NCBI GenBank assembly: GCA_048886185.1
Contig: JBHLKY010000002.1
Span: 90,001 to 122,000 of the forward strand
From: Candidatus Hermodarchaeota archaeon
GTDB lineage: Archaea > Asgardarchaeota > Heimdallarchaeia > Hodarchaeales > Hodarchaeaceae
Length of the DNA: 32,000 bases
Direction: 5' to 3'
The position numbers and the translations under genes are program-made. The notes below the pieces were generated by a model, which searched no databases, was not told where the DNA came from, and was given only the letters and a program-made list of their open reading frames with translations. Every line of letters starts with the position of its first letter. Positions within the stretch are counted from its first letter, which is position 1. Below are positions 20,580 through 29,275 of this stretch, piece by piece.

Positions 20580-20587
20580 TTTTTTTT
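20580..20587 (+). terminator. T8 tract overlapping the stop of the convergent alpha-2-macroglobulin gene
   Basis: Eight Ts 28 nt after the stop at 20551. Confidence 0.35.
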
Positions 20588-23500
20588 AACGCCATGACTG
20601 CTCTCTAAATCTTTTTCTGACAATCAAACTAGCTGAAGTTCCTGTGATAGTAGCCACGATAATGAGACCTATTATTGAAAAAACAGGAACAACAAGGTCT
20701 TCAATCTCGATAAATTGTTTAAACGACTCGGTGACAAGTACATTCCCTGCAAGGTCAATAATCTCTAAATAAATCTGACTCTCGCCATCATTTAATCCTG
20801 TCGCAAGAACTTTCCAAGTTTCTTGATCTTCTGAACACTCGAACACCTTCCAAGAAGATTGTTTTATAAAAACACGAACACTAGCGATTCCCCAGTTATC
20901 TGAAGCGGTAACTTCTATATCAAGTACGCCCTTTGATGCAAGAAGAGTTTCTTCCAAAATTATCGATTCAAGAATAGGGATTTGAAGATCTTTGATAACT
21001 GCGCCTGTTGAAGGATCTATTGGTACTCGGGTATCACCTAGAATTTCAGCAGAGCTACTTTCAACCCAATCATCATACATACTTGATAATTTCGCTGGAG
21101 ACACGAGTGATTGTCTTACATTCATGACAACAAGGCCATATTTGATTTCAGTGGATCCAATCTTCAACTCAGGGAAGAAAAAGGTTATTCCTGTTGCAGT
21201 AATCTGATAGGTACCAGTTAAATGCTTAATAGTATTCTCGTCGAGTTCAAAACCGATTGGGATGTTGTCTTCTAGCATTAGAAAATTCTCAACTTCTTTG
21301 TAATTATTAACTGTTAAAGTCACATAGATCAATTCACCCTTTTTTAATCCATTGACTTTTGAATAACTTCGATCTAATTCAATTTCAGTCGAACTATCTG
21401 TTTTTAATTTTGAATTTTTGATATTTATTGTCAAAGGATTGATAGGAACAGATGAAATGCCTAATATAATACCTCCTGCCGGATTAGAGACCTCTAACTG
21501 GACAGGTCCGTACTTCCGAGTGATGATTCCAGGTGAAAATTGAGTTAGATCTCCATTTGACAACTGATAACTGATTTCAAAGCCAGGAATTTCGTAAATT
21601 CCTGATTGAGAAGGAGAATTATAATTGAATCTGATTTCTGTCTGTTGAGTGAGGTGAGTAATTGAATAAGGTTGATTAATAGTTGGTGTCAGCTCTCCAT
21701 CAAGGGGTACAATTGATAGATTATATGCAAAGACATTTGACGAAATTGGTATCATTGTAACAGGAAGTGTAACTTGTTGTCCGTGATAGCTACTTAACTT
21801 AGTTGGAAGGCTAATAGATGGTAAACTTCGAAGGATCTGATTACCATGGAAGTAATAGCTTACATTACCGAGTCCTTCTTTCATCAATTCGATATGGTTC
21901 TCCCCAGCACGGAGATATCTTTCAAGATCAATATAGTATGTGGGTTGAGATGAAGTAGAAAGACTGTAGTTTTCAATTAAATTATCATTAACAACTAAGG
22001 TGACCTTAGCATCTTCATCAGAGCTAATTTCACTTTCGCTCAAAGCAATTATTGTGGAAATCGCAGCTACAGTATCAGCAGTATTACCCCATCCGTACCA
22101 AGATTGACGTTGTAATAACCATTGGATTGCAGAGCGAATGATGGGCATTGAGGCCGCTGGATCGTTCACAACCAATCCTTTTAAAGCCAATGCGGTGATT
22201 TCAACATCACCCCCGAGAGCTCGCCAATAATGCTCATCTGAAGAATATGTCCAGTAGTAACCAATAGAAGAAAGTCGAACTTCATTTTTCAAATAATTAA
22301 GAAGTGTTATTTCAAAGGAAGATTGACCGAATCCTGATCCAGGAACACTATCTAGATATAATCCTGCCAAGTATGTGGAGCGTTTATCTATATCATTCCA
22401 TGCTGCGCTAATATATGTTACAGCGTCCGTTATTGTTGTCGTTGAGTCAAGTACATCAACCCATTGTAAAATTGATCTCAACACAAATCCTGTGAAAGAA
22501 GTTTGATCAATACCTCTCCAAGAGTCAGGTGTCCAACTTCCATCTTGGTTTTGGTGACTACGTAACATATCGATTGCATCCGAAACAACGTTAGGATCGA
22601 TATAGAAACCACTCTTGTTTACAATTCCTAATCCATATAGTACTAGACTAGTCATATAGACACGTGATGAATCATCGTGCCACCAACCCCATCCACCATC
22701 CCTGTGTTGTTGACTATAGATACGAGATAACCCAGAAACAACCATATCACGAATTATTTCCTCTGTTTCATCTGTAAGCTGATCAATCTTTTCAAGATAC
22801 TTCAGAATAAGAGCATCAGGAATGAGGCAAGAAATCGTTTGTTCTGTACAACCATAAGGATAATTTAGTAGCCTTTCCCATGATGTGAGTGCTATTGAAC
22901 CCAAACCGAGGGACAGTTCGAGAAATTCTGATTGCTGAACTGATTCTGAATAACGGATGTATGAAAAACTTGGGTCACTTGAAATAAAACCGCTGGTTTT
23001 AAAATCAGAAGTAACCCCATTAGGAATGATCTCTAGAGGTTTACGAATGGCATCCTCATAACGAGTCGCATCCATCGTTGTGTCACCATAAAGGGTAACG
23101 TTAAAGATTCCGATATCTTGAGCCAAGCATGACCAACCGATAGATCCTAAGAATCCACTTGGTAACATTAATGATTGAGTATTACGACCTAATGTTAAAA
23201 TTCCAGATTCAGTTTCAAGCTCAAGGGTTATGTTCACAAGTGCTTCAAGATAATTGTAAACTATTCCTTTGAGAACGAATACCTCATCCTGCAATACGAA
23301 TGGTTCTTTATTAATTTCTACGAAGAATGGAAGAAAAGTTTTGAAGGAGTACTTACTCAAAACTCCTTTTCCTGAGTCTGTAGTCGCCACAACTCGTACA
23401 GTCCACTCACCAATAGTGTCTGGGAGAGGTAATTCTATCTCAAGCTGTCCATCTTCTACAATCACATTAGGACTCCAATAAGCATTTTCAGGAAGATTGT

Positions 23501-26468
23501 CACGGATATCTCTTTTTTTCGGGGAAGAATCAGCAATTTCCTCGTTTTTTGTAGCTGAAGGGGGTAAGGGGGTTTGATATTCCCCTTCCTCTGCATTAAA
23601 AAAGATATCATCTTCTATATAATAACCACGATATCCCCCAAAGGGAAGAAAGTATCCAGGATAGAGATCGTACCACCAGAACCACCAATATCGTTGTTGA
23701 TTCTTCCATGAAACAACCGTCCAAACTGAAGGCCAGTACTCTTGATCTTGAAAATGTTCTTGTTCAGTTTCGGGATCTGCTTGGACACCAAACACTGAAC
23801 TGTCAATGAAAGAGACAACTAGAACTGTAGGGACAGGTTGATGGTTTGCATCATAAACTTTGATAATAACTGTTGCTTGGTCACCTGGTTCATACACTGA
23901 TTTATCGGAATTGATTTCGACCAGGAGAGATGCATCGATTTCAATATCAAGGCTTGTTTCAAGGATTGTACCATCATTAAGGATGGCAAAAGCATACACC
24001 CAACACCGTGGGGCTAGAAAATAGATATTCTCAATTTCAATATTAAAATCTGAAACAGAAGATACATCAATATACTCAGTAATGACTATTCCTTTTTTGA
24101 TGAATTGAATCATTATTGGAATATTTGTCTGTCCCTGAATCTGTCCAGAAATAGTAAGGCTATCAGTTAAAGCGTAAGAGGACTTATCAGGAGTGAGAGA
24201 AATCTCATTAGCAGACCCAACATGAAATTCGACTGTTTCGGAGTAACGATAATATCTCCATGAACCATATTCACTATCAAATATTGTCTCCAAGTAACAA
24301 TATATGAAGTATTTCCCATTTGGAGCATAAGAAGTAAGATGAAAGTTGATAACACTGCCTTGAGAGGATACATCCATAAGAACCTCTCCAATTAAATCGT
24401 AATCGGAATCAAAGATCCTTAATTGTAAGCTTCCTGCAATTAAAGTGTTTGATACAACATTACGAATTGCAACTTTAAATTCTATTGTTTCCCCTGCTTC
24501 GTATATTCGAGGATCAAGATCTACTTCTAAAGCATTTCTATCAACTGTGAAGTAAAATGTTGATGATTCTTCTCTGCCGTCTCCAGCATTCACTTCCACC
24601 AATCCTTTAAATCGGTGATAAGAAATATACACAGAAGTGGGTAAGTTGAATTCTATCATTCCTTGCCCGTTAAGATCAGTTTTAGACTCGAATGTGGTAA
24701 TATATTTATAATTTGTATCCGATATCACCCCATAGATCTTAATATCTACCTCTGCATTGGTTAAAGGACGCCAATCCCACCAGTACCACCCTCGATTTGA
24801 ATATTGATAGGCACCGAAATACACTGTAATATTCTCTTCAAGTTTAGGAAACCATGGATTCACGTAAGCCCAGACATAGACTTTATCCGTGATCTGAACA
24901 ACTGTAGAGCTTGAAACTTCTCGATCTACTGTGTCTTTTACTGTAACATTAATTGGAATTTCGCTTATTCCTTCAAGAGATGATTCGCTTGGCAATCTAT
25001 ATTTAAAATCCCAATATCCATCAATATCAGTTGTTCCACTAAGAACATCTAAATCTGCGATTGCTAGCTCCACCTCGGCACCAGAAACCGGTTTACCAAA
25101 ATAATACTCTGCAGTAACATTTCCAGAAACTATGTTACCTGGCGCAACATATTCCTGATTTAAACCGATACCAACTCGGAAGGATGGTTTTTCATACTTG
25201 TCAACCCGAATTGAGACCGAACTAACTAGATCCTCTTTTTGAGTAACGATGTAATAACTTCCCAACTCACTTTCTGTATCCAAAGTGAATGAATAAGTCG
25301 CAATACCATGAGAGTCAGTTGTTACTTGCCGATGGAGCAAAATATGTTGAGAGGGAGATAAGAATTTCAAAATAAACGAGGTTTGTGCTGGTTCCTTTGT
25401 AACTTTAAGGTAATCATTTTCCCATAAAAGAATTCGAGCTTGAATTGTTTCTCCAGGGGAATATATAGGCTTATCCGTTGTTACAATGAATTCATACTTT
25501 TGATATTCAGTATATCCATCCCGTCCCCAGTAATAACCCCCACGATAAATATCACGAGATACATAGACTGTTTCATCATTATAACTAGCACTTAGATTAG
25601 CTAGAAAGTTATAATTATCAGAAATACTACTAGGTGGTATGAAATCTATTTCTACTATTCCTTGATCATTTGAAATACCAGTGAATAGGTCTTCAGTTTG
25701 AACCTCATAGGATTCAATACTGTAATTATAATCATAGATAACTCCTGATAATTCGATTTCGGCACCTGCAATAGGAGAAAAGTCTGAAGTACTAAGGACA
25801 TAGGCTACTGAATAATGATGTTCATCCCTGACAAATTCACTTGAAACACGCCAGAAAAGTCCAATATTAGCCACAGTAAAAGATCTTGTGTCTATATAAT
25901 ATCCAGATGATGAACGAACCACAATAGAGTAACGTCCAGTGGAAGGAGGATTGAATTGTCCTTGATACTCACCATCAGATCCTGTTGTTATTAGCTCACT
26001 TGAAATTATTCGATCCTCATATGGTATGTATTCTTCTAACCACCTAAAGTACCATCCCCAATACTCCCCTCGAATAATATCTAAATCGAGGGTCTCACCA
26101 GGAACAGGTTCTAAACCCTTTGTTACTTGTATAACATAGTTAAGGGGGGTTCCAGGAGAAACCACTTGTCTCTCCAAGTCTATGTTTATGATTGTTGATT
26201 GACTCTGGACTTTTTGCGACAAAGAGAGATCAGCGGATACATTATTCGAATTTAATGGGCCTGGGTTGAAGTTATTTTGGATTATTGAGTATTTAGAATC
26301 CTCAATTGGCCGAATTTCTCGTTCAACATCAAAATAAGGCCTTTCTTGAAGTATATTAGTATAATCATCCATTATTTCATTATTTATAGATTGGGAGAAC
26401 CCAATAGTGTAAAATATGTTAAAATTAAGGAGTAATAATAATAAAAAACTTAGAAACTTCTTTTTCAT
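20586..26468 (-). CDS. Alpha-2-macroglobulin/thioester-protein family, secreted and C-terminally membrane-anchored
   Basis: Signal peptide MKKKFLSFLLLLLL. MG-domain motifs TTDKPIYSPGE, DKYEKPSF, YYFGKPV and SDKSVYEPGD. IRDNLPENAYW, LPDTIGEW, thioester YPYGCTEQ, QHRDGGWGWW, GWGNTADT, MLEDNIPIGFE, PAKLSSMYD. Then an Ig-like domain, a TM helix and a basic tail. Start is probably ATG 26468 (alternatives 26483, TTG 26501). Confidence 0.92.
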   Translation of the reverse strand: MKKKFLSFLLLLLLNFNIFYTIGFSQSINNEIMDDYTNILQERPYFDVEREIRPIEDSKYSIIQNNFNPGPLNSNNVSADLSLSQKVQSQSTIINIDLERQVVSPGTPLNYVIQVTKGLEPVPGETLDLDIIRGEYWGWYFRWLEEYIPYEDRIISSELITTGSDGEYQGQFNPPSTGRYSIVVRSSSGYYIDTRSFTVANIGLFWRVSSEFVRDEHHYSVAYVLSTSDFSPIAGAEIELSGVIYDYNYSIESYEVQTEDLFTGISNDQGIVEIDFIPPSSISDNYNFLANLSASYNDETVYVSRDIYRGGYYWGRDGYTEYQKYEFIVTTDKPIYSPGETIQARILLWENDYLKVTKEPAQTSFILKFLSPSQHILLHRQVTTDSHGIATYSFTLDTESELGSYYIVTQKEDLVSSVSIRVDKYEKPSFRVGIGLNQEYVAPGNIVSGNVTAEYYFGKPVSGAEVELAIADLDVLSGTTDIDGYWDFKYRLPSESSLEGISEIPINVTVKDTVDREVSSSTVVQITDKVYVWAYVNPWFPKLEENITVYFGAYQYSNRGWYWWDWRPLTNAEVDIKIYGVISDTNYKYITTFESKTDLNGQGMIEFNLPTSVYISYHRFKGLVEVNAGDGREESSTFYFTVDRNALEVDLDPRIYEAGETIEFKVAIRNVVSNTLIAGSLQLRIFDSDYDLIGEVLMDVSSQGSVINFHLTSYAPNGKYFIYCYLETIFDSEYGSWRYYRYSETVEFHVGSANEISLTPDKSSYALTDSLTISGQIQGQTNIPIMIQFIKKGIVITEYIDVSSVSDFNIEIENIYFLAPRCWVYAFAILNDGTILETSLDIEIDASLLVEINSDKSVYEPGDQATVIIKVYDANHQPVPTVLVVSFIDSSVFGVQADPETEQEHFQDQEYWPSVWTVVSWKNQQRYWWFWWYDLYPGYFLPFGGYRGYYIEDDIFFNAEEGEYQTPLPPSATKNEEIADSSPKKRDIRDNLPENAYWSPNVIVEDGQLEIELPLPDTIGEWTVRVVATTDSGKGVLSKYSFKTFLPFFVEINKEPFVLQDEVFVLKGIVYNYLEALVNITLELETESGILTLGRNTQSLMLPSGFLGSIGWSCLAQDIGIFNVTLYGDTTMDATRYEDAIRKPLEIIPNGVTSDFKTSGFISSDPSFSYIRYSESVQQSEFLELSLGLGSIALTSWERLLNYPYGCTEQTISCLIPDALILKYLEKIDQLTDETEEIIRDMVVSGLSRIYSQQHRDGGWGWWHDDSSRVYMTSLVLYGLGIVNKSGFYIDPNVVSDAIDMLRSHQNQDGSWTPDSWRGIDQTSFTGFVLRSILQWVDVLDSTTTITDAVTYISAAWNDIDKRSTYLAGLYLDSVPGSGFGQSSFEITLLNYLKNEVRLSSIGYYWTYSSDEHYWRALGGDVEITALALKGLVVNDPAASMPIIRSAIQWLLQRQSWYGWGNTADTVAAISTIIALSESEISSDEDAKVTLVVNDNLIENYSLSTSSQPTYYIDLERYLRAGENHIELMKEGLGNVSYYFHGNQILRSLPSISLPTKLSSYHGQQVTLPVTMIPISSNVFAYNLSIVPLDGELTPTINQPYSITHLTQQTEIRFNYNSPSQSGIYEIPGFEISYQLSNGDLTQFSPGIITRKYGPVQLEVSNPAGGIILGISSVPINPLTINIKNSKLKTDSSTEIELDRSYSKVNGLKKGELIYVTLTVNNYKEVENFLMLEDNIPIGFELDENTIKHLTGTYQITATGITFFFPELKIGSTEIKYGLVVMNVRQSLVSPAKLSSMYDDWVESSSAEILGDTRVPIDPSTGAVIKDLQIPILESIILEETLLASKGVLDIEVTASDNWGIASVRVFIKQSSWKVFECSEDQETWKVLATGLNDGESQIYLEIIDLAGNVLVTESFKQFIEIEDLVVPVFSIIGLIIVATITGTSASLIVRKRFREQSWR

Positions 26469-26674
26469 ATCTTTTCCACTCATATTTAGGTTTATGCGCA
26501 ACTCTGAATTATTTGATGTTTAGACGCTCCTTAGATAAAATACCAAGCATTAGAACATCCTCTTACTTTGTGTTCGAATTTTTAGAAAACATTAGAATCA
26601 AAGTGGAAAGACTTGCAGAATGATTAAATATCCCAAACAAATGGTAGAGCGATTTTTATTTGTTGATATGCTAA

Positions 26675-29275
26675 CTATTTGAAAAAAACTGTTAATGGGA
26701 TGATGAATGCCCCTTGTTGAGCCTCGCTTTCCCTTATTTGAATACCAAAACGACTACTAGCTCCCAATATTTCCCTCACATAATGCATTCGGTCAATTAA
26801 TTTCTTTCCATCACGAAAAACGTCTGGGTGATAAGCTCTACGATATTGGGGCTCATTAGGAGAACCTTTGGCTATTATGTAAGGAAATCCATCCCATTTC
26901 TTCCATTCTAATTCAGGATCCAAACCTAATTGTTCACAATAATGCAGAAAAGCACCAATAGCGGGAGTCTTTGATCTATACTTTGCTGGAGATCGTCGTA
27001 ATGGACCCCTGATTGTTAAATCTTTTATTAACATTGTAACTGAATTGCTTAGAATGACACGACTAATGTTAAAAATCACTCTACGCGCATGTTCTCTTCG
27101 CTTATCAGATAAATCAGTTAAGAGTGCCTCAAGGAGCTCTCGTTGTGCTTTTCTTGCTAGAGGTGACCAGTCAGATCTGACAGCTTCAAAACCTCTAATA
27201 ACAATATTATTTGTAAGCAAAGAATCGTAAGCATAAGCCTTTTTTCGACCCTTCTTCAGAATAATCCTTGAGGCTACATCCTCAAGTTGTAATTCGAGGA
27301 ATTCTGGTAATTTTTGCGATAAGAAATAACGGTATTCATCAATTGCTGCTAATAACCGACTCTGTTTCTGGATCCTTATTGTTTGTGCTGAATCAGTCTG
27401 AAAGTCAACTAAACTCAGATTTGGTATTACAAATTCTATGAAAATTGAATCTGTATCACCATATCGAAGTAACACATCATAGCGTTGTTTTTTCGAGAAC
27501 TCATTCGTCCATTTCTCCAATTTATCACTTAAAAGCTCTCGAGCGATACCTGTTATACTATTTGCTATTATATGGTGATAAAATCTTCCTCGTGGATAAT
27601 TCGATGCACCTAACAGAGAATTGGCCATTAATTTCAATGATCGTTGTCTTTTCTCAAGAATATCTATATTTTGAGCAGTTTCATGCCTTTCATCCTTCTT
27701 TATCTTTTGAATTTCTTCCTGTGTTTGATATCGCTGTTTCAAAATTCGATCCATTAGGATAGCTAGTGCACCACGAGGCTCTTTTTTAAATCTTTGATCT
27801 GGAGGTAATGATTCCGAGTTTACCAAAAGAGTTTCTCCAGAAATATTATGTGTTCTAACAATATTAGGGTACAATGAACGAAAATCTAGAATCGCAACAA
27901 ATGTAGCTTCATTAACAGAAGGATCAATAACCCACCCCCCCAGGTGAGGATATTTTCGACCAAACTCCTTCCTTGCTTTTAATTCAGATGAAGTTGGTTT
28001 AGAGGGGATAAATATATCTTTTGAATAGAGAATCCTCATCAACTCTAGCTCCCCAATATTCCGACTTGTTGAAAGAATACCTTCAGGCAGTGGATAACCT
28101 GTTAATCGACACAATTCGATAGAATTTGATACTCCTAACTCTGTAGCTAGCTGAAAAGTAAGAATTGCATCTTTCAAAGAATAATCTCGAAACAATTGGG
28201 CATCTTCTTGATTTCCTTTAACCCCACTTCTCCATAGTTCCCCTAATTCTTTATTCAGCTTTACTTTTGATTCACCAAGAACCTCTTCTGAAATGGAATC
28301 TAATGTTTTTTGCCCGCTAACAGGATGAATTCCCCAGGTTCGTGGCATTAGGTCTACAATAGCACGTCCTTTTAAACGGTAACTTTCGACAGGTATATCT
28401 GACTTGATTATATCGTTCTGTATACCTGGGAAAAATGCTAGTTCACCTAGTGTCTTGTTATATCTTGCTAACCGAGCTATTAAATAGGGAATGTCAAAAA
28501 ATGTTCCATTAAAAGAAAGTAAAATATCAGGTTGTTGTTGTTTTACCGTAGTTAAGAATTCGTTCAATAAAGCTAATTCAGCTTTATTGGTGTCTTTTTC
28601 AAGAATGATTACTTTAGAGATCGGAGTCTCTCTTTCTAACGTACCCCAAGCCATAGATATGGCTGTGACTCTTCCTTTCTTTTCATGCAACAACTCATGT
28701 ATAGTCTCCCCCTCTTTATAATCAACTTCAATATCAAAAGCAAAAAGAGAAGGTTGATAATCACTGGATTTTTCTGAATTTTGTGAAACATTTTCATATG
28801 AAGCTTCAATAAATAGTGCATCATTTTCTTGTCGTATTATCGTACCTTGAACTGTGATAGGATGTAAGGCCCGTAAATTCCTATCAATTAAAAATCGACG
28901 AGTAAAGGGAATATCTGCTTCATGGACTTCAATTCCAGCTTTTAAAAAGACTCTCTTAACCTCTGGAACAAGGAAAGGGACATTTCCTATTACTTTTGTT
29001 ACACTTCTTGTAGATCCACCAAAAAAAGTTTGTTTTTCATAACGAAGAGTTTTTACAAGCCAATCTTTAGTCTGTGCTCTCTCCTCTGCTAGAATAGCTT
29101 TAATTTTTTCTTCAGAAGCTTCCACAAAGAAGTATGGTAAGAACCCATGAACTCTGACTTCAACTCGTTGGCCATTTGATCGGCCCCAGAGACGAAGAAT
29201 AGGTAATTTTACCCCATTCTTTATCTGAATCTCATAATCAGCGTCTAGTAGGAAAAAGTCTATCGACGTAGTCAC
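26675..29275 (-). CDS. polB: Family B DNA polymerase with 3'-5' exonuclease domain
   Basis: ExoI FDIEV, ExoII FNGTFFDIPYL, ExoIII YSLKDA. Motif A DFRSLYP, motif B KLMANSLLG (Tyr->Leu), motif C YGDTDS, KKAY and RGFEAVRSDW. Confidence 0.95.
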   Translation of the reverse strand: MTTSIDFFLLDADYEIQIKNGVKLPILRLWGRSNGQRVEVRVHGFLPYFFVEASEEKIKAILAEERAQTKDWLVKTLRYEKQTFFGGSTRSVTKVIGNVPFLVPEVKRVFLKAGIEVHEADIPFTRRFLIDRNLRALHPITVQGTIIRQENDALFIEASYENVSQNSEKSSDYQPSLFAFDIEVDYKEGETIHELLHEKKGRVTAISMAWGTLERETPISKVIILEKDTNKAELALLNEFLTTVKQQQPDILLSFNGTFFDIPYLIARLARYNKTLGELAFFPGIQNDIIKSDIPVESYRLKGRAIVDLMPRTWGIHPVSGQKTLDSISEEVLGESKVKLNKELGELWRSGVKGNQEDAQLFRDYSLKDAILTFQLATELGVSNSIELCRLTGYPLPEGILSTSRNIGELELMRILYSKDIFIPSKPTSSELKARKEFGRKYPHLGGWVIDPSVNEATFVAILDFRSLYPNIVRTHNISGETLLVNSESLPPDQRFKKEPRGALAILMDRILKQRYQTQEEIQKIKKDERHETAQNIDILEKRQRSLKLMANSLLGASNYPRGRFYHHIIANSITGIARELLSDKLEKWTNEFSKKQRYDVLLRYGDTDSIFIEFVIPNLSLVDFQTDSAQTIRIQKQSRLLAAIDEYRYFLSQKLPEFLELQLEDVASRIILKKGRKKAYAYDSLLTNNIVIRGFEAVRSDWSPLARKAQRELLEALLTDLSDKRREHARRVIFNISRVILSNSVTMLIKDLTIRGPLRRSPAKYRSKTPAIGAFLHYCEQLGLDPELEWKKWDGFPYIIAKGSPNEPQYRRAYHPDVFRDGKKLIDRMHYVREILGASSRFGIQIRESEAQQGAFIIPLTVFFK

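Follow-up and report, generated by a model that had tools for sequence, protein, structure and literature searches.

Most of what is known about alpha-2-macroglobulin (A2M)-type thioester proteins comes from the innate immunity of animals and from a small number of Gram-negative bacteria. What such a protein does on the surface of an Asgard archaeon, and whether it has anything to do with the origin of animal complement, are the questions raised by a gene in a 32,000-nucleotide stretch of DNA from a Candidatus Hermodarchaeota archaeon (contig JBHLKY010000002.1, positions 90,001 to 122,000; this whole stretch is called the window below, and positions in it count from its first letter). An earlier note, made from the letters of the window alone, had described the gene product as a membrane-tethered A2M with an intact thioester motif and had read it as a cell-surface protease trap or a proto-complement protein with eukaryote-like topology. 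The analyses described here support the tethered A2M, leave the protease trap as the best functional reading, and argue against a link with the forerunners of animal complement.

A thioester-family protein with a predicted C-terminal membrane anchor

The gene occupies a single open frame on the minus strand (20586..26501 in the open reading frame (ORF) list of the window), with its stop codon at 20586-20588. The longest form begins at a TTG at 26501, and in-frame ATG codons are present at 26483 (MSGKD) and 26468 (MKKKF). The start at 26468 chosen in the earlier note gives a product of 1960 amino acids (aa) (20586..26468) that is identical to a database protein, P0002.

A word-indexed search returned about 39 relatives, 48-71% identical to this protein and 1940-1990 residues in length, that are labelled Hodarchaeales, Hodarchaeota, Heimdallarchaeota or 'Promethearchaeota', after which identity dropped to about 25% with bacterial proteins. 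The signal peptide, the thioester motif GC[TIV]EQ, the transmembrane (TM) helix and an R/K tail are kept in 36/36 full-length orthologues (48-71% identity), and conservation of the whole architecture is therefore far beyond chance. G-C-x-E-Q itself is invariant, both in these 36 orthologues and in the distant Asgard members described below.

Pfam searches, AlphaFold2 (AF2) models and reading of the sequence confirmed the parts that had been listed for the protein, namely a signal peptide, macroglobulin (MG) domains, a bait position, a thioester domain (TED), an immunoglobulin (Ig)-like domain, a TM helix and the terminal sequence RKRFREQSWR. MG2 (88 bits), A2M_BRD (43 bits), A2M and TED scored above the Pfam cut-offs, and bMG10 and Big_7 gave weak matches. 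AF2 was run on the two halves of the protein separately, each with an alignment of the 36 orthologues. The model of the N-terminal half (predicted local distance difference test (pLDDT) 74) opens with a disordered stretch and continues through about seven beta-sandwich domains to a loop, again disordered, where the bait is expected. That of the C-terminal half (pLDDT 83) runs from MG7 through CUB, the helical TED and CUB again to an extra beta domain, from which a disordered linker leads to MG8, followed by an Ig-like domain and a terminal helix. In Foldseek searches the N-terminal half matched ECAM, A2ML1, CD109, Salmonella A2M and the beta chains of C3/C4/C5 (E 1e-26 to 1e-21), and the C-terminal half matched the alpha chains of complement C3/C4/C5 and human A2M; overall, with A2M, ECAM, CD109, TEP1 and C3-C5 among the matches, E ranged from 1e-31 to 1e-21. 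Global TM-scores (template-modelling scores) were low (0.2-0.4), as the chains consist of many domains that are arranged differently, and the matches were used solely to confirm the fold class.

The protein begins with a predicted signal peptide (residues 1-27; 26388..26468, minus strand, like all of the features that follow), read as MKKK, a hydrophobic core and SQS, and every complete orthologue has a hydrophobic segment at its N-terminus. The mature N-terminus (residues 28-88; 26205..26387) is disordered and poorly conserved (pLDDT 21-26; mean pairwise identity 0.26) and precedes about seven MG-type beta-sandwich domains (residues 92-872; 23853..26195), which include Pfam MG2 and A2M_BRD and are supported by Pfam, the N-terminal AF2 model and Foldseek. 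The N-terminal MG-like domains presumably number one more than in animal A2Ms. A bait-like loop (residues 936-984; 23517..23663), with pLDDT below 50, lies between Pfam A2M_BRD and A2M, and is followed by MG7, the Pfam A2M domain (residues 996-1092; 23193..23483; PF00207, 51 bits, and AF2 strands), and by the first half of CUB (residues 1097-1187; 22908..23180; strands 107-197 of the C-terminal AF2 model, with Foldseek matches to C3/C5/A2M alpha chains). The TED, an alpha/alpha toroid (residues 1197-1478; 22035..22880; PF07678, 92 bits; AF2 helices 207-488), is inserted before the second half of CUB (residues 1487-1546; 21831..22010; AF2 strands 497-556). Direct reading of the DNA showed that the thioester motif GCTEQ, within YPYGCTEQT, is encoded at exactly the position given in the earlier note (22839-22853), with Cys1207 and Gln1210 in the numbering of P0002.

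Between CUB and MG8 is an extra beta domain (residues 1551-1661; 21486..21818; AF2 strands 561-671, pLDDT about 90) that has no Pfam match and shows a pairwise identity of 0.49 among orthologues; this domain and the additional N-terminal MG-like domain are features that the earlier list did not contain. A second disordered, hypervariable linker (residues 1665-1693; 21390..21476; pLDDT about 31, pairwise identity 0.15) separates the extra domain from MG8, and we know of no counterpart to it in characterised A2Ms. The last domain of the MG array had been called receptor-binding-like, and a last MG-type domain is indeed present (MG8; residues 1696-1817; 21018..21383; AF2 strands 706-827), but it matches the bacterial MG10 family PF17973 (20.7 bits, below the cut-off, and listed for most orthologues as well) and not PF07677, A2M_recep. 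Beyond MG8 are an Ig-like stalk (residues 1832-1920, SDNWGIASV...IDLAGN; 20709..20975; AF2 beta sandwich 842-930 and a weak Big_7 hit), a single TM helix (residues 1926-1950; 20619..20693; hydropathy 2.47 over 19 aa; AF2 helix 939-969) and the basic, presumptively cytoplasmic tail RKRFREQSWR (20589..20618, from the translation). Together, the predicted signal peptide, the ectodomain, the one C-terminal TM helix and the positive-inside tail support a type-I membrane topology.

A candidate protease trap and its alternatives

If the protein is an A2M in function as well as in fold, its bait region should be exposed and variable. The bait-like loop is flanked by a conserved aromatic block, WWFWWY, and a conserved motif, IRDNLPENAYW, and in the orthologue alignment it is the least conserved and most gap-rich part of the whole protein, with a mean pairwise identity of 0.215 vs about 0.67 in both flanks, a length of 37-49 aa and a composition rich in G/E/D/Y. 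We take the LPENAYW that lies 3' of the loop to be the counterpart of FPE(T/S)W, which comes after the bait/ANA region of A2M and C3. The loop behaves as a bait region is expected to, and by analogy would be the site of cleavage.

The protein is probably a membrane-tethered, protease-triggered covalent trap for foreign proteases, working by analogy with the monomeric A2Ms ECAM, A2ML1 and CD109. The signal peptide would export an ectodomain of about 1900 residues, which the Ig-like stalk, TM helix and basic tail would hold on the outer face of the cell membrane. Cleavage of the hypervariable, exposed bait loop by a foreign protease would set off a rearrangement of the MG ring and of CUB-TED and so expose the buried Cys-Gln thioester, which would acylate a nearby amine on the protease. 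The protease would remain covalently fixed to the cell surface and sterically blocked, and the archaeon, whose surface is rich in protein and has no wall, would be shielded by such a trap. The cell-surface protease trap of the earlier note thus stands as the best functional reading, with trapping itself argued from analogy.

Comparison with characterised proteins bears on both the mechanism and the setting in which it would operate. The bacterial type-1 A2Ms ECAM/YfhM of E. coli (5a42, 4rtd, 4ziq) and SaA2M of Salmonella (4u48) share with the Asgard protein the YPYGCxEQT context, a bMG10-type last domain and the MG-array fold, and like them the Asgard protein is likely to be a monomeric, membrane-tethered thioester trap. 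ECAM and SaA2M, however, are periplasmic N-terminal lipoproteins encoded with pbpC, whereas the Asgard protein would face outward on a C-terminal TM helix. That it has neither a lipoprotein signal nor a pbpC partner, as had been claimed, held up: there is no Cys within the first 27 residues and hence no lipobox, no lipobox pattern was present in the family representatives checked, and PF00912 (transglycosylase-type penicillin-binding protein) has no match anywhere in the 96%-complete genome, indicating that there is no pbpC. The two bacterial proteins also belong to a different major clade, with sequence similarity of just 31-45 bits. CD109 (8s3o, 9fx2) and A2ML1 (7q1y), which are monomeric, protease-triggered and of A2M type, are among the best matches in both sequence and fold, and CD109 shares a C-terminal cell-surface tether with the Asgard protein. 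The differences are that CD109 has a glycosylphosphatidylinositol (GPI) anchor, the metazoan GCGEQN context and another kind of last domain, and that the Asgard protein exceeds CD109 and A2ML1 by one MG-like domain at the N-terminus, a beta domain following CUB and an Ig stalk.

Several observations weigh against the protease trap. Thioester formation, bait cleavage and protease trapping are all steps that we infer from characterised members of the family. The loop that bears the catalytic His of C3 or Asn of A2M is about nine residues shorter here, and no clear equivalent aligns; because of this shortening, direct reaction with amines is weakly expected. The extra beta domain and the second linker are without counterpart in characterised A2Ms, and no protease, regulator or partner gene travels with the A2M gene in the window or at the loci of two relatives. 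Finally, a trap that is fixed to the cell that makes it fits roles in adhesion or capture equally well.

Alternatively, therefore, the surface-fixed thioester could serve as a covalent capture or adhesion device that tags or tethers cells, syntrophic partners, viruses or polymers, in a manner resembling opsonisation by C3/TEP proteins or the action of Gram-positive thioester adhesins, with the protein here staying cell-bound. C3 and TEP1, members of the same family, are established to tag surfaces; the Asgard protein is predicted to remain permanently attached, through an Ig stalk, to the membrane of the cell that makes it; the same stalk-anchor module ends a 12,627-aa putative adhesin-like ORF (described below); and no protease-related gene was seen among its neighbours in the window or at the two relatives' loci. 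A full MG ring with a hypervariable bait, on the other hand, is what characterises protease-triggered traps; the alignment shows no catalytic His that would serve hydroxyl transacylation, and no convertase-like or recognition partner is evident. We regard the capture device as a doubtful alternative. A cell-bound covalent capture system formed by this Asgard-wide protein, in which the bait would be cut by a protease of a partner or attacker and the result would be a covalent grip on that cell, virus or enzyme, is a speculative proposal to which we attach a rather small probability. If it were true, opsonisation would have a counterpart on the surface of prokaryotic cells, in the lineage that is closest to eukaryotes, and attachment to syntrophic partners would be possible.

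An anchor shared among archaeal proteins

The earlier note had taken the anchor as a sign of eukaryote-like topology. This interpretation did not survive comparison with other archaeal proteins. Beyond the Asgard clade, many of the next-best matches also end in a TM helix and basic tail, those bearing names being from Thermoplasmata, Altiarchaeota, Micrarchaeota and Nanoarchaeota. The large proteins from Thermoplasmata (for example P0127, 2458 aa) and those from Altiarchaeota, Micrarchaeota and Nanoarchaeota (P0140, P0201 and P0203, which are smaller) share with the Asgard protein the signal peptide, YPYGCxEQT, the TM helix and the basic tail. They differ from it in length and N-terminal architecture, with 25-30% identity over the core, and their matches end at about query position 780-900, so that none covers the Asgard-specific extra domain, MG8 or the Ig stalk. 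The predicted C-terminal TM anchor is not special to this protein; it is common among its archaeal relatives.

Within its own genome (G000), the last ~135 residues of the protein, comprising the Ig-like domain and the helix, can be aligned from end to end with the C-termini of two other large ORFs, which have the same Ig domain, TM helix and basic tail: the putative adhesin-like ORF of 12,627 aa (contig C15, 8414-46294, minus strand; hmmsearch i-E 1.7e-6) and an ORF of 741 aa (contig C1, 231491-233713, plus strand; i-E 1.5e-4). Because it ends these two other ORFs, the Ig stalk with its anchor looks like a general surface-display module.

The end of the protein raises the question of whether the helix is a lasting anchor or a sorting signal that is cut by a sortase-like enzyme, leaving the protein lipid-anchored or released. 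The tail is tripartite, with a conserved D-L-x-I-P-x-x-P-I motif ahead of the helix and basic residues clustered behind it, many ORFs of the same genome end in PGF, a TM helix and an R/K tail, and the genome contains two sub-threshold archaeosortase-like ORFs. The tail of the window protein, however, reads D-L-V-V-P-V-F-S-I, with no PGF, and matches no NCBIfam CTERM-domain model; PF09721 has no match in the genome; and in distant members of the family a long cytoplasmic stretch of 20-40 residues follows the helix, as is not typical of sorting signals. We give cleavage of the helix very little credence, and archaeosortase-type processing is unlikely.

Two observations on surface proteins of this genome stand apart from the A2M gene. 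Dozens of ORFs have PGF, TM and R/K tails (for example C12:64213-66112, C8:95350-97150 and C3:44425-46213), and the only matches to TIGR04125 are two below threshold, at 29.9 and 24 bits (L015, G000:C7:165684-166007, and L016, G000:C8:72080-72403); the genome may encode a divergent archaeosortase. Another tail is common to at least ten ORFs; it reads approximately DLLPxxQ(I/L)LxLG followed by a phenylalanine-rich helix and IIIRR(H/Q)Q (examples are C2:75615-77661, C2:78007-79780, C2:80142-81966, C11:163739-167614 and C16:43484-47924) and may be a separate sorting or anchoring signal.

Descent, genomic setting and the animal question

The occurrence of A2M in archaea is itself not new. Makarova et al. 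(2021; PMC8416519) described archaeal A2M homologues with CxEQ, a signal peptide, Ig/MG domains and a TED in arCOG genomes, mainly of Halobacteria and Methanomicrobia, and proposed a role in defence or inter-microbial conflict. Like the Asgard protein, they come from archaea, have a predicted signal peptide and combine Ig/MG domains with a TED in which CxEQ is intact; unlike it, they are often encoded in variable surface-protein neighbourhoods, whereas the Asgard gene lies in a conserved housekeeping neighbourhood beside PolB. The A2M homologues of PMC8416519 are not linked there with any Asgard lineage or with a C-terminal TM anchor, and no relevant paper linking macroglobulin or thioester proteins with Asgard archaea or Heimdallarchaeota was found in the literature searched. 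The description of the system as under-described thus applies to the Asgard clade and its anchor, which were not found in that literature, and not to archaeal A2Ms with CxEQ, which had been published. What is known, then, is archaeal A2Ms with CxEQ, and what is new, on the architecture predicted here, is the variant found in the Asgard clade, with its type-I TM anchor, Ig stalk and extra domain.

To place this clade we built a tree from the MG7-to-MG8 core (95 rows, 717 columns; IQ-TREE, LG+C20 PMSF, quick search, Shimodaira-Hasegawa-like approximate likelihood-ratio test (SH-aLRT) supports). Its metazoan rows were vertebrate A2M/ovostatin and two other metazoan-looking proteins, with no C3/C4/C5, CD109 or insect TEPs, and the rows named 'ProkOther' are prokaryotic without assigned taxonomy. 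The Asgard family is monophyletic (SH-aLRT 100), and its nearest outgroup is a clade of large, TM-anchored archaeal proteins that includes the Thermoplasmata protein, although support for this grouping is only 89. The protein therefore nests, much as the earlier note had envisaged for a bacterial clade, where the C-terminal anchor is already common, and the clade in question is archaeal, not bacterial. The ECAM-like rows are grouped apart (SH-aLRT 99), divided from these proteins by a branch with support 100. The metazoan A2Ms (support 100) are sister to a bacterial protein, P0057, and then to a bacterial clade with CFEQ (99). P0057 (1403 aa, prokaryotic) has the animal-type context MPFGCGEQNM, and its placement as sister of metazoan A2Ms with support 100 suggests gene transfer between animals and bacteria, in either direction.

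These results bear on the proposal that the Asgard protein is proto-complement, in which case the A2M/C3/CD109/TEP proteins of eukaryotes would be its direct descendants or its sister group, and its tether would be homologous to that of CD109. In phmmer searches of the PDB, human A2M (118 bits), CD109 (96) and TEP1 (81) scored above Salmonella A2M (45) and ECAM (31), and in the tree Asgard and metazoan proteins fall inside one large clade (SH-aLRT 100) apart from the ECAM-like clade. Within that clade, however, the metazoan A2Ms are sister to P0057 and the RMPxGCFEQTSS clade (SH-aLRT 100 and 99) and not to the Asgard clade, and an approximately unbiased (AU) test rejected the topology in which Asgard and Metazoa are united (delta lnL 118.7, p 0.0013), with metazoan rows of A2M type only. 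The thioester context points the same way: the Asgard protein has YPYGCxEQT, as do ECAM-like and other prokaryotic proteins, rather than the MPxGCGEQN of Metazoa; in the bacterial 'eukaryote-like' group it reads RMPxGCFEQTSS. The last MG domain is of bMG10 type (a weak PF17973 match) and PF07677, A2M_recep, is absent, and the CD109 anchor is GPI, whereas the Asgard anchor is a TM helix. To our knowledge TEPs are an essentially metazoan family, and vertical descent would require massive loss. The earlier note's proto-complement claim is therefore contradicted by the thioester context, the last domain and the grouping of Metazoa with a bacterial clade, and we consider such an ancestry scarcely tenable. 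By these lines of evidence, namely the thioester context, the last MG domain and the tree with its AU test, the protein is no forerunner of animal complement and no source of metazoan TEPs.

The genome (4.84 Mb, 96% complete) has one TED-bearing gene. PolB, encoding a family-B DNA polymerase, lies directly upstream on the same strand (26675-29275, minus), and the downstream neighbour is a convergent gene for a 251-aa protein with no Pfam or NCBIfam match. The order MFS-PhoU, PolB, A2M, a 250-aa protein and inositol-phosphate synthase recurs in a closed Heimdall relative whose A2M is 52% identical, and PolB and A2M are also adjacent in a relative with a 49%-identical A2M (loci L002 and L003 for the two relatives). 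It is this synteny with a closed Heimdall genome, together with the names of the relatives, that places the gene in an archaeal context. We considered a PolB-A2M operon with shared function and rejected it, and we read the adjacency as synteny of what appears to be a vertically inherited, stable chromosomal region. A TATA-like sequence, TTTTATCT, is located about 50 nt 5' of the ATG at 26483. The DNA runs that contain the stretch are four sediment metagenomes, which may be its own source, and one estuary run, with a small share; no RNA run was among the runs listed as containing it.

The phylum was surveyed by searching 301 Asgard genomes with a profile built from the C-terminal half. It matched 17/20 genomes of the same Hodarchaeales genus; in other Asgard families, full-length matches that reach the Ig/TM part were present in 5/7 genomes of one, 4/68 of another and the one genome searched in each of two more, and some large families, such as one with 76 genomes, had no match to this profile. 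An exhaustive HMMER search returned the same patchy distribution. The same C-terminal anchor thus occurs elsewhere in the phylum, a survey for which had been proposed in the earlier note. The distant Asgard ORFs have 1950-2080 residues, a signal peptide, CxEQ and a C-terminal helix, and in some the cytoplasmic tail is longer, whereas the tail of the window protein consists of the 10 basic-tail residues only. In distant members (L005-L010; P0112, P0115, P0133) the longer tail ends in an acidic motif resembling FSF(I/V/L)D(D/E/S). A second Asgard A2M-like type (L011, L012, L013; P0162), of 1557-1650 aa and with CxEQ, lacks an N-terminal signal peptide and TM helix; in the tree it stands as a separate clade (SH-aLRT 98), and its location may be intracellular.

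As judged from tree, motifs and synteny, the A2M gene is no recent bacterial import and is kept vertically in an Asgard-specific clade within a wider archaeal radiation of TM-anchored A2Ms. Asgard archaea, then, appear to keep their own old and conserved A2M lineage, built differently from the characterised forms. Because tree and motifs place the protein with other archaeal A2Ms, the result guards against over-reading it as a eukaryotic signature, and the protein becomes a concrete candidate for how wall-less Asgard cells may protect or use their exposed surface.

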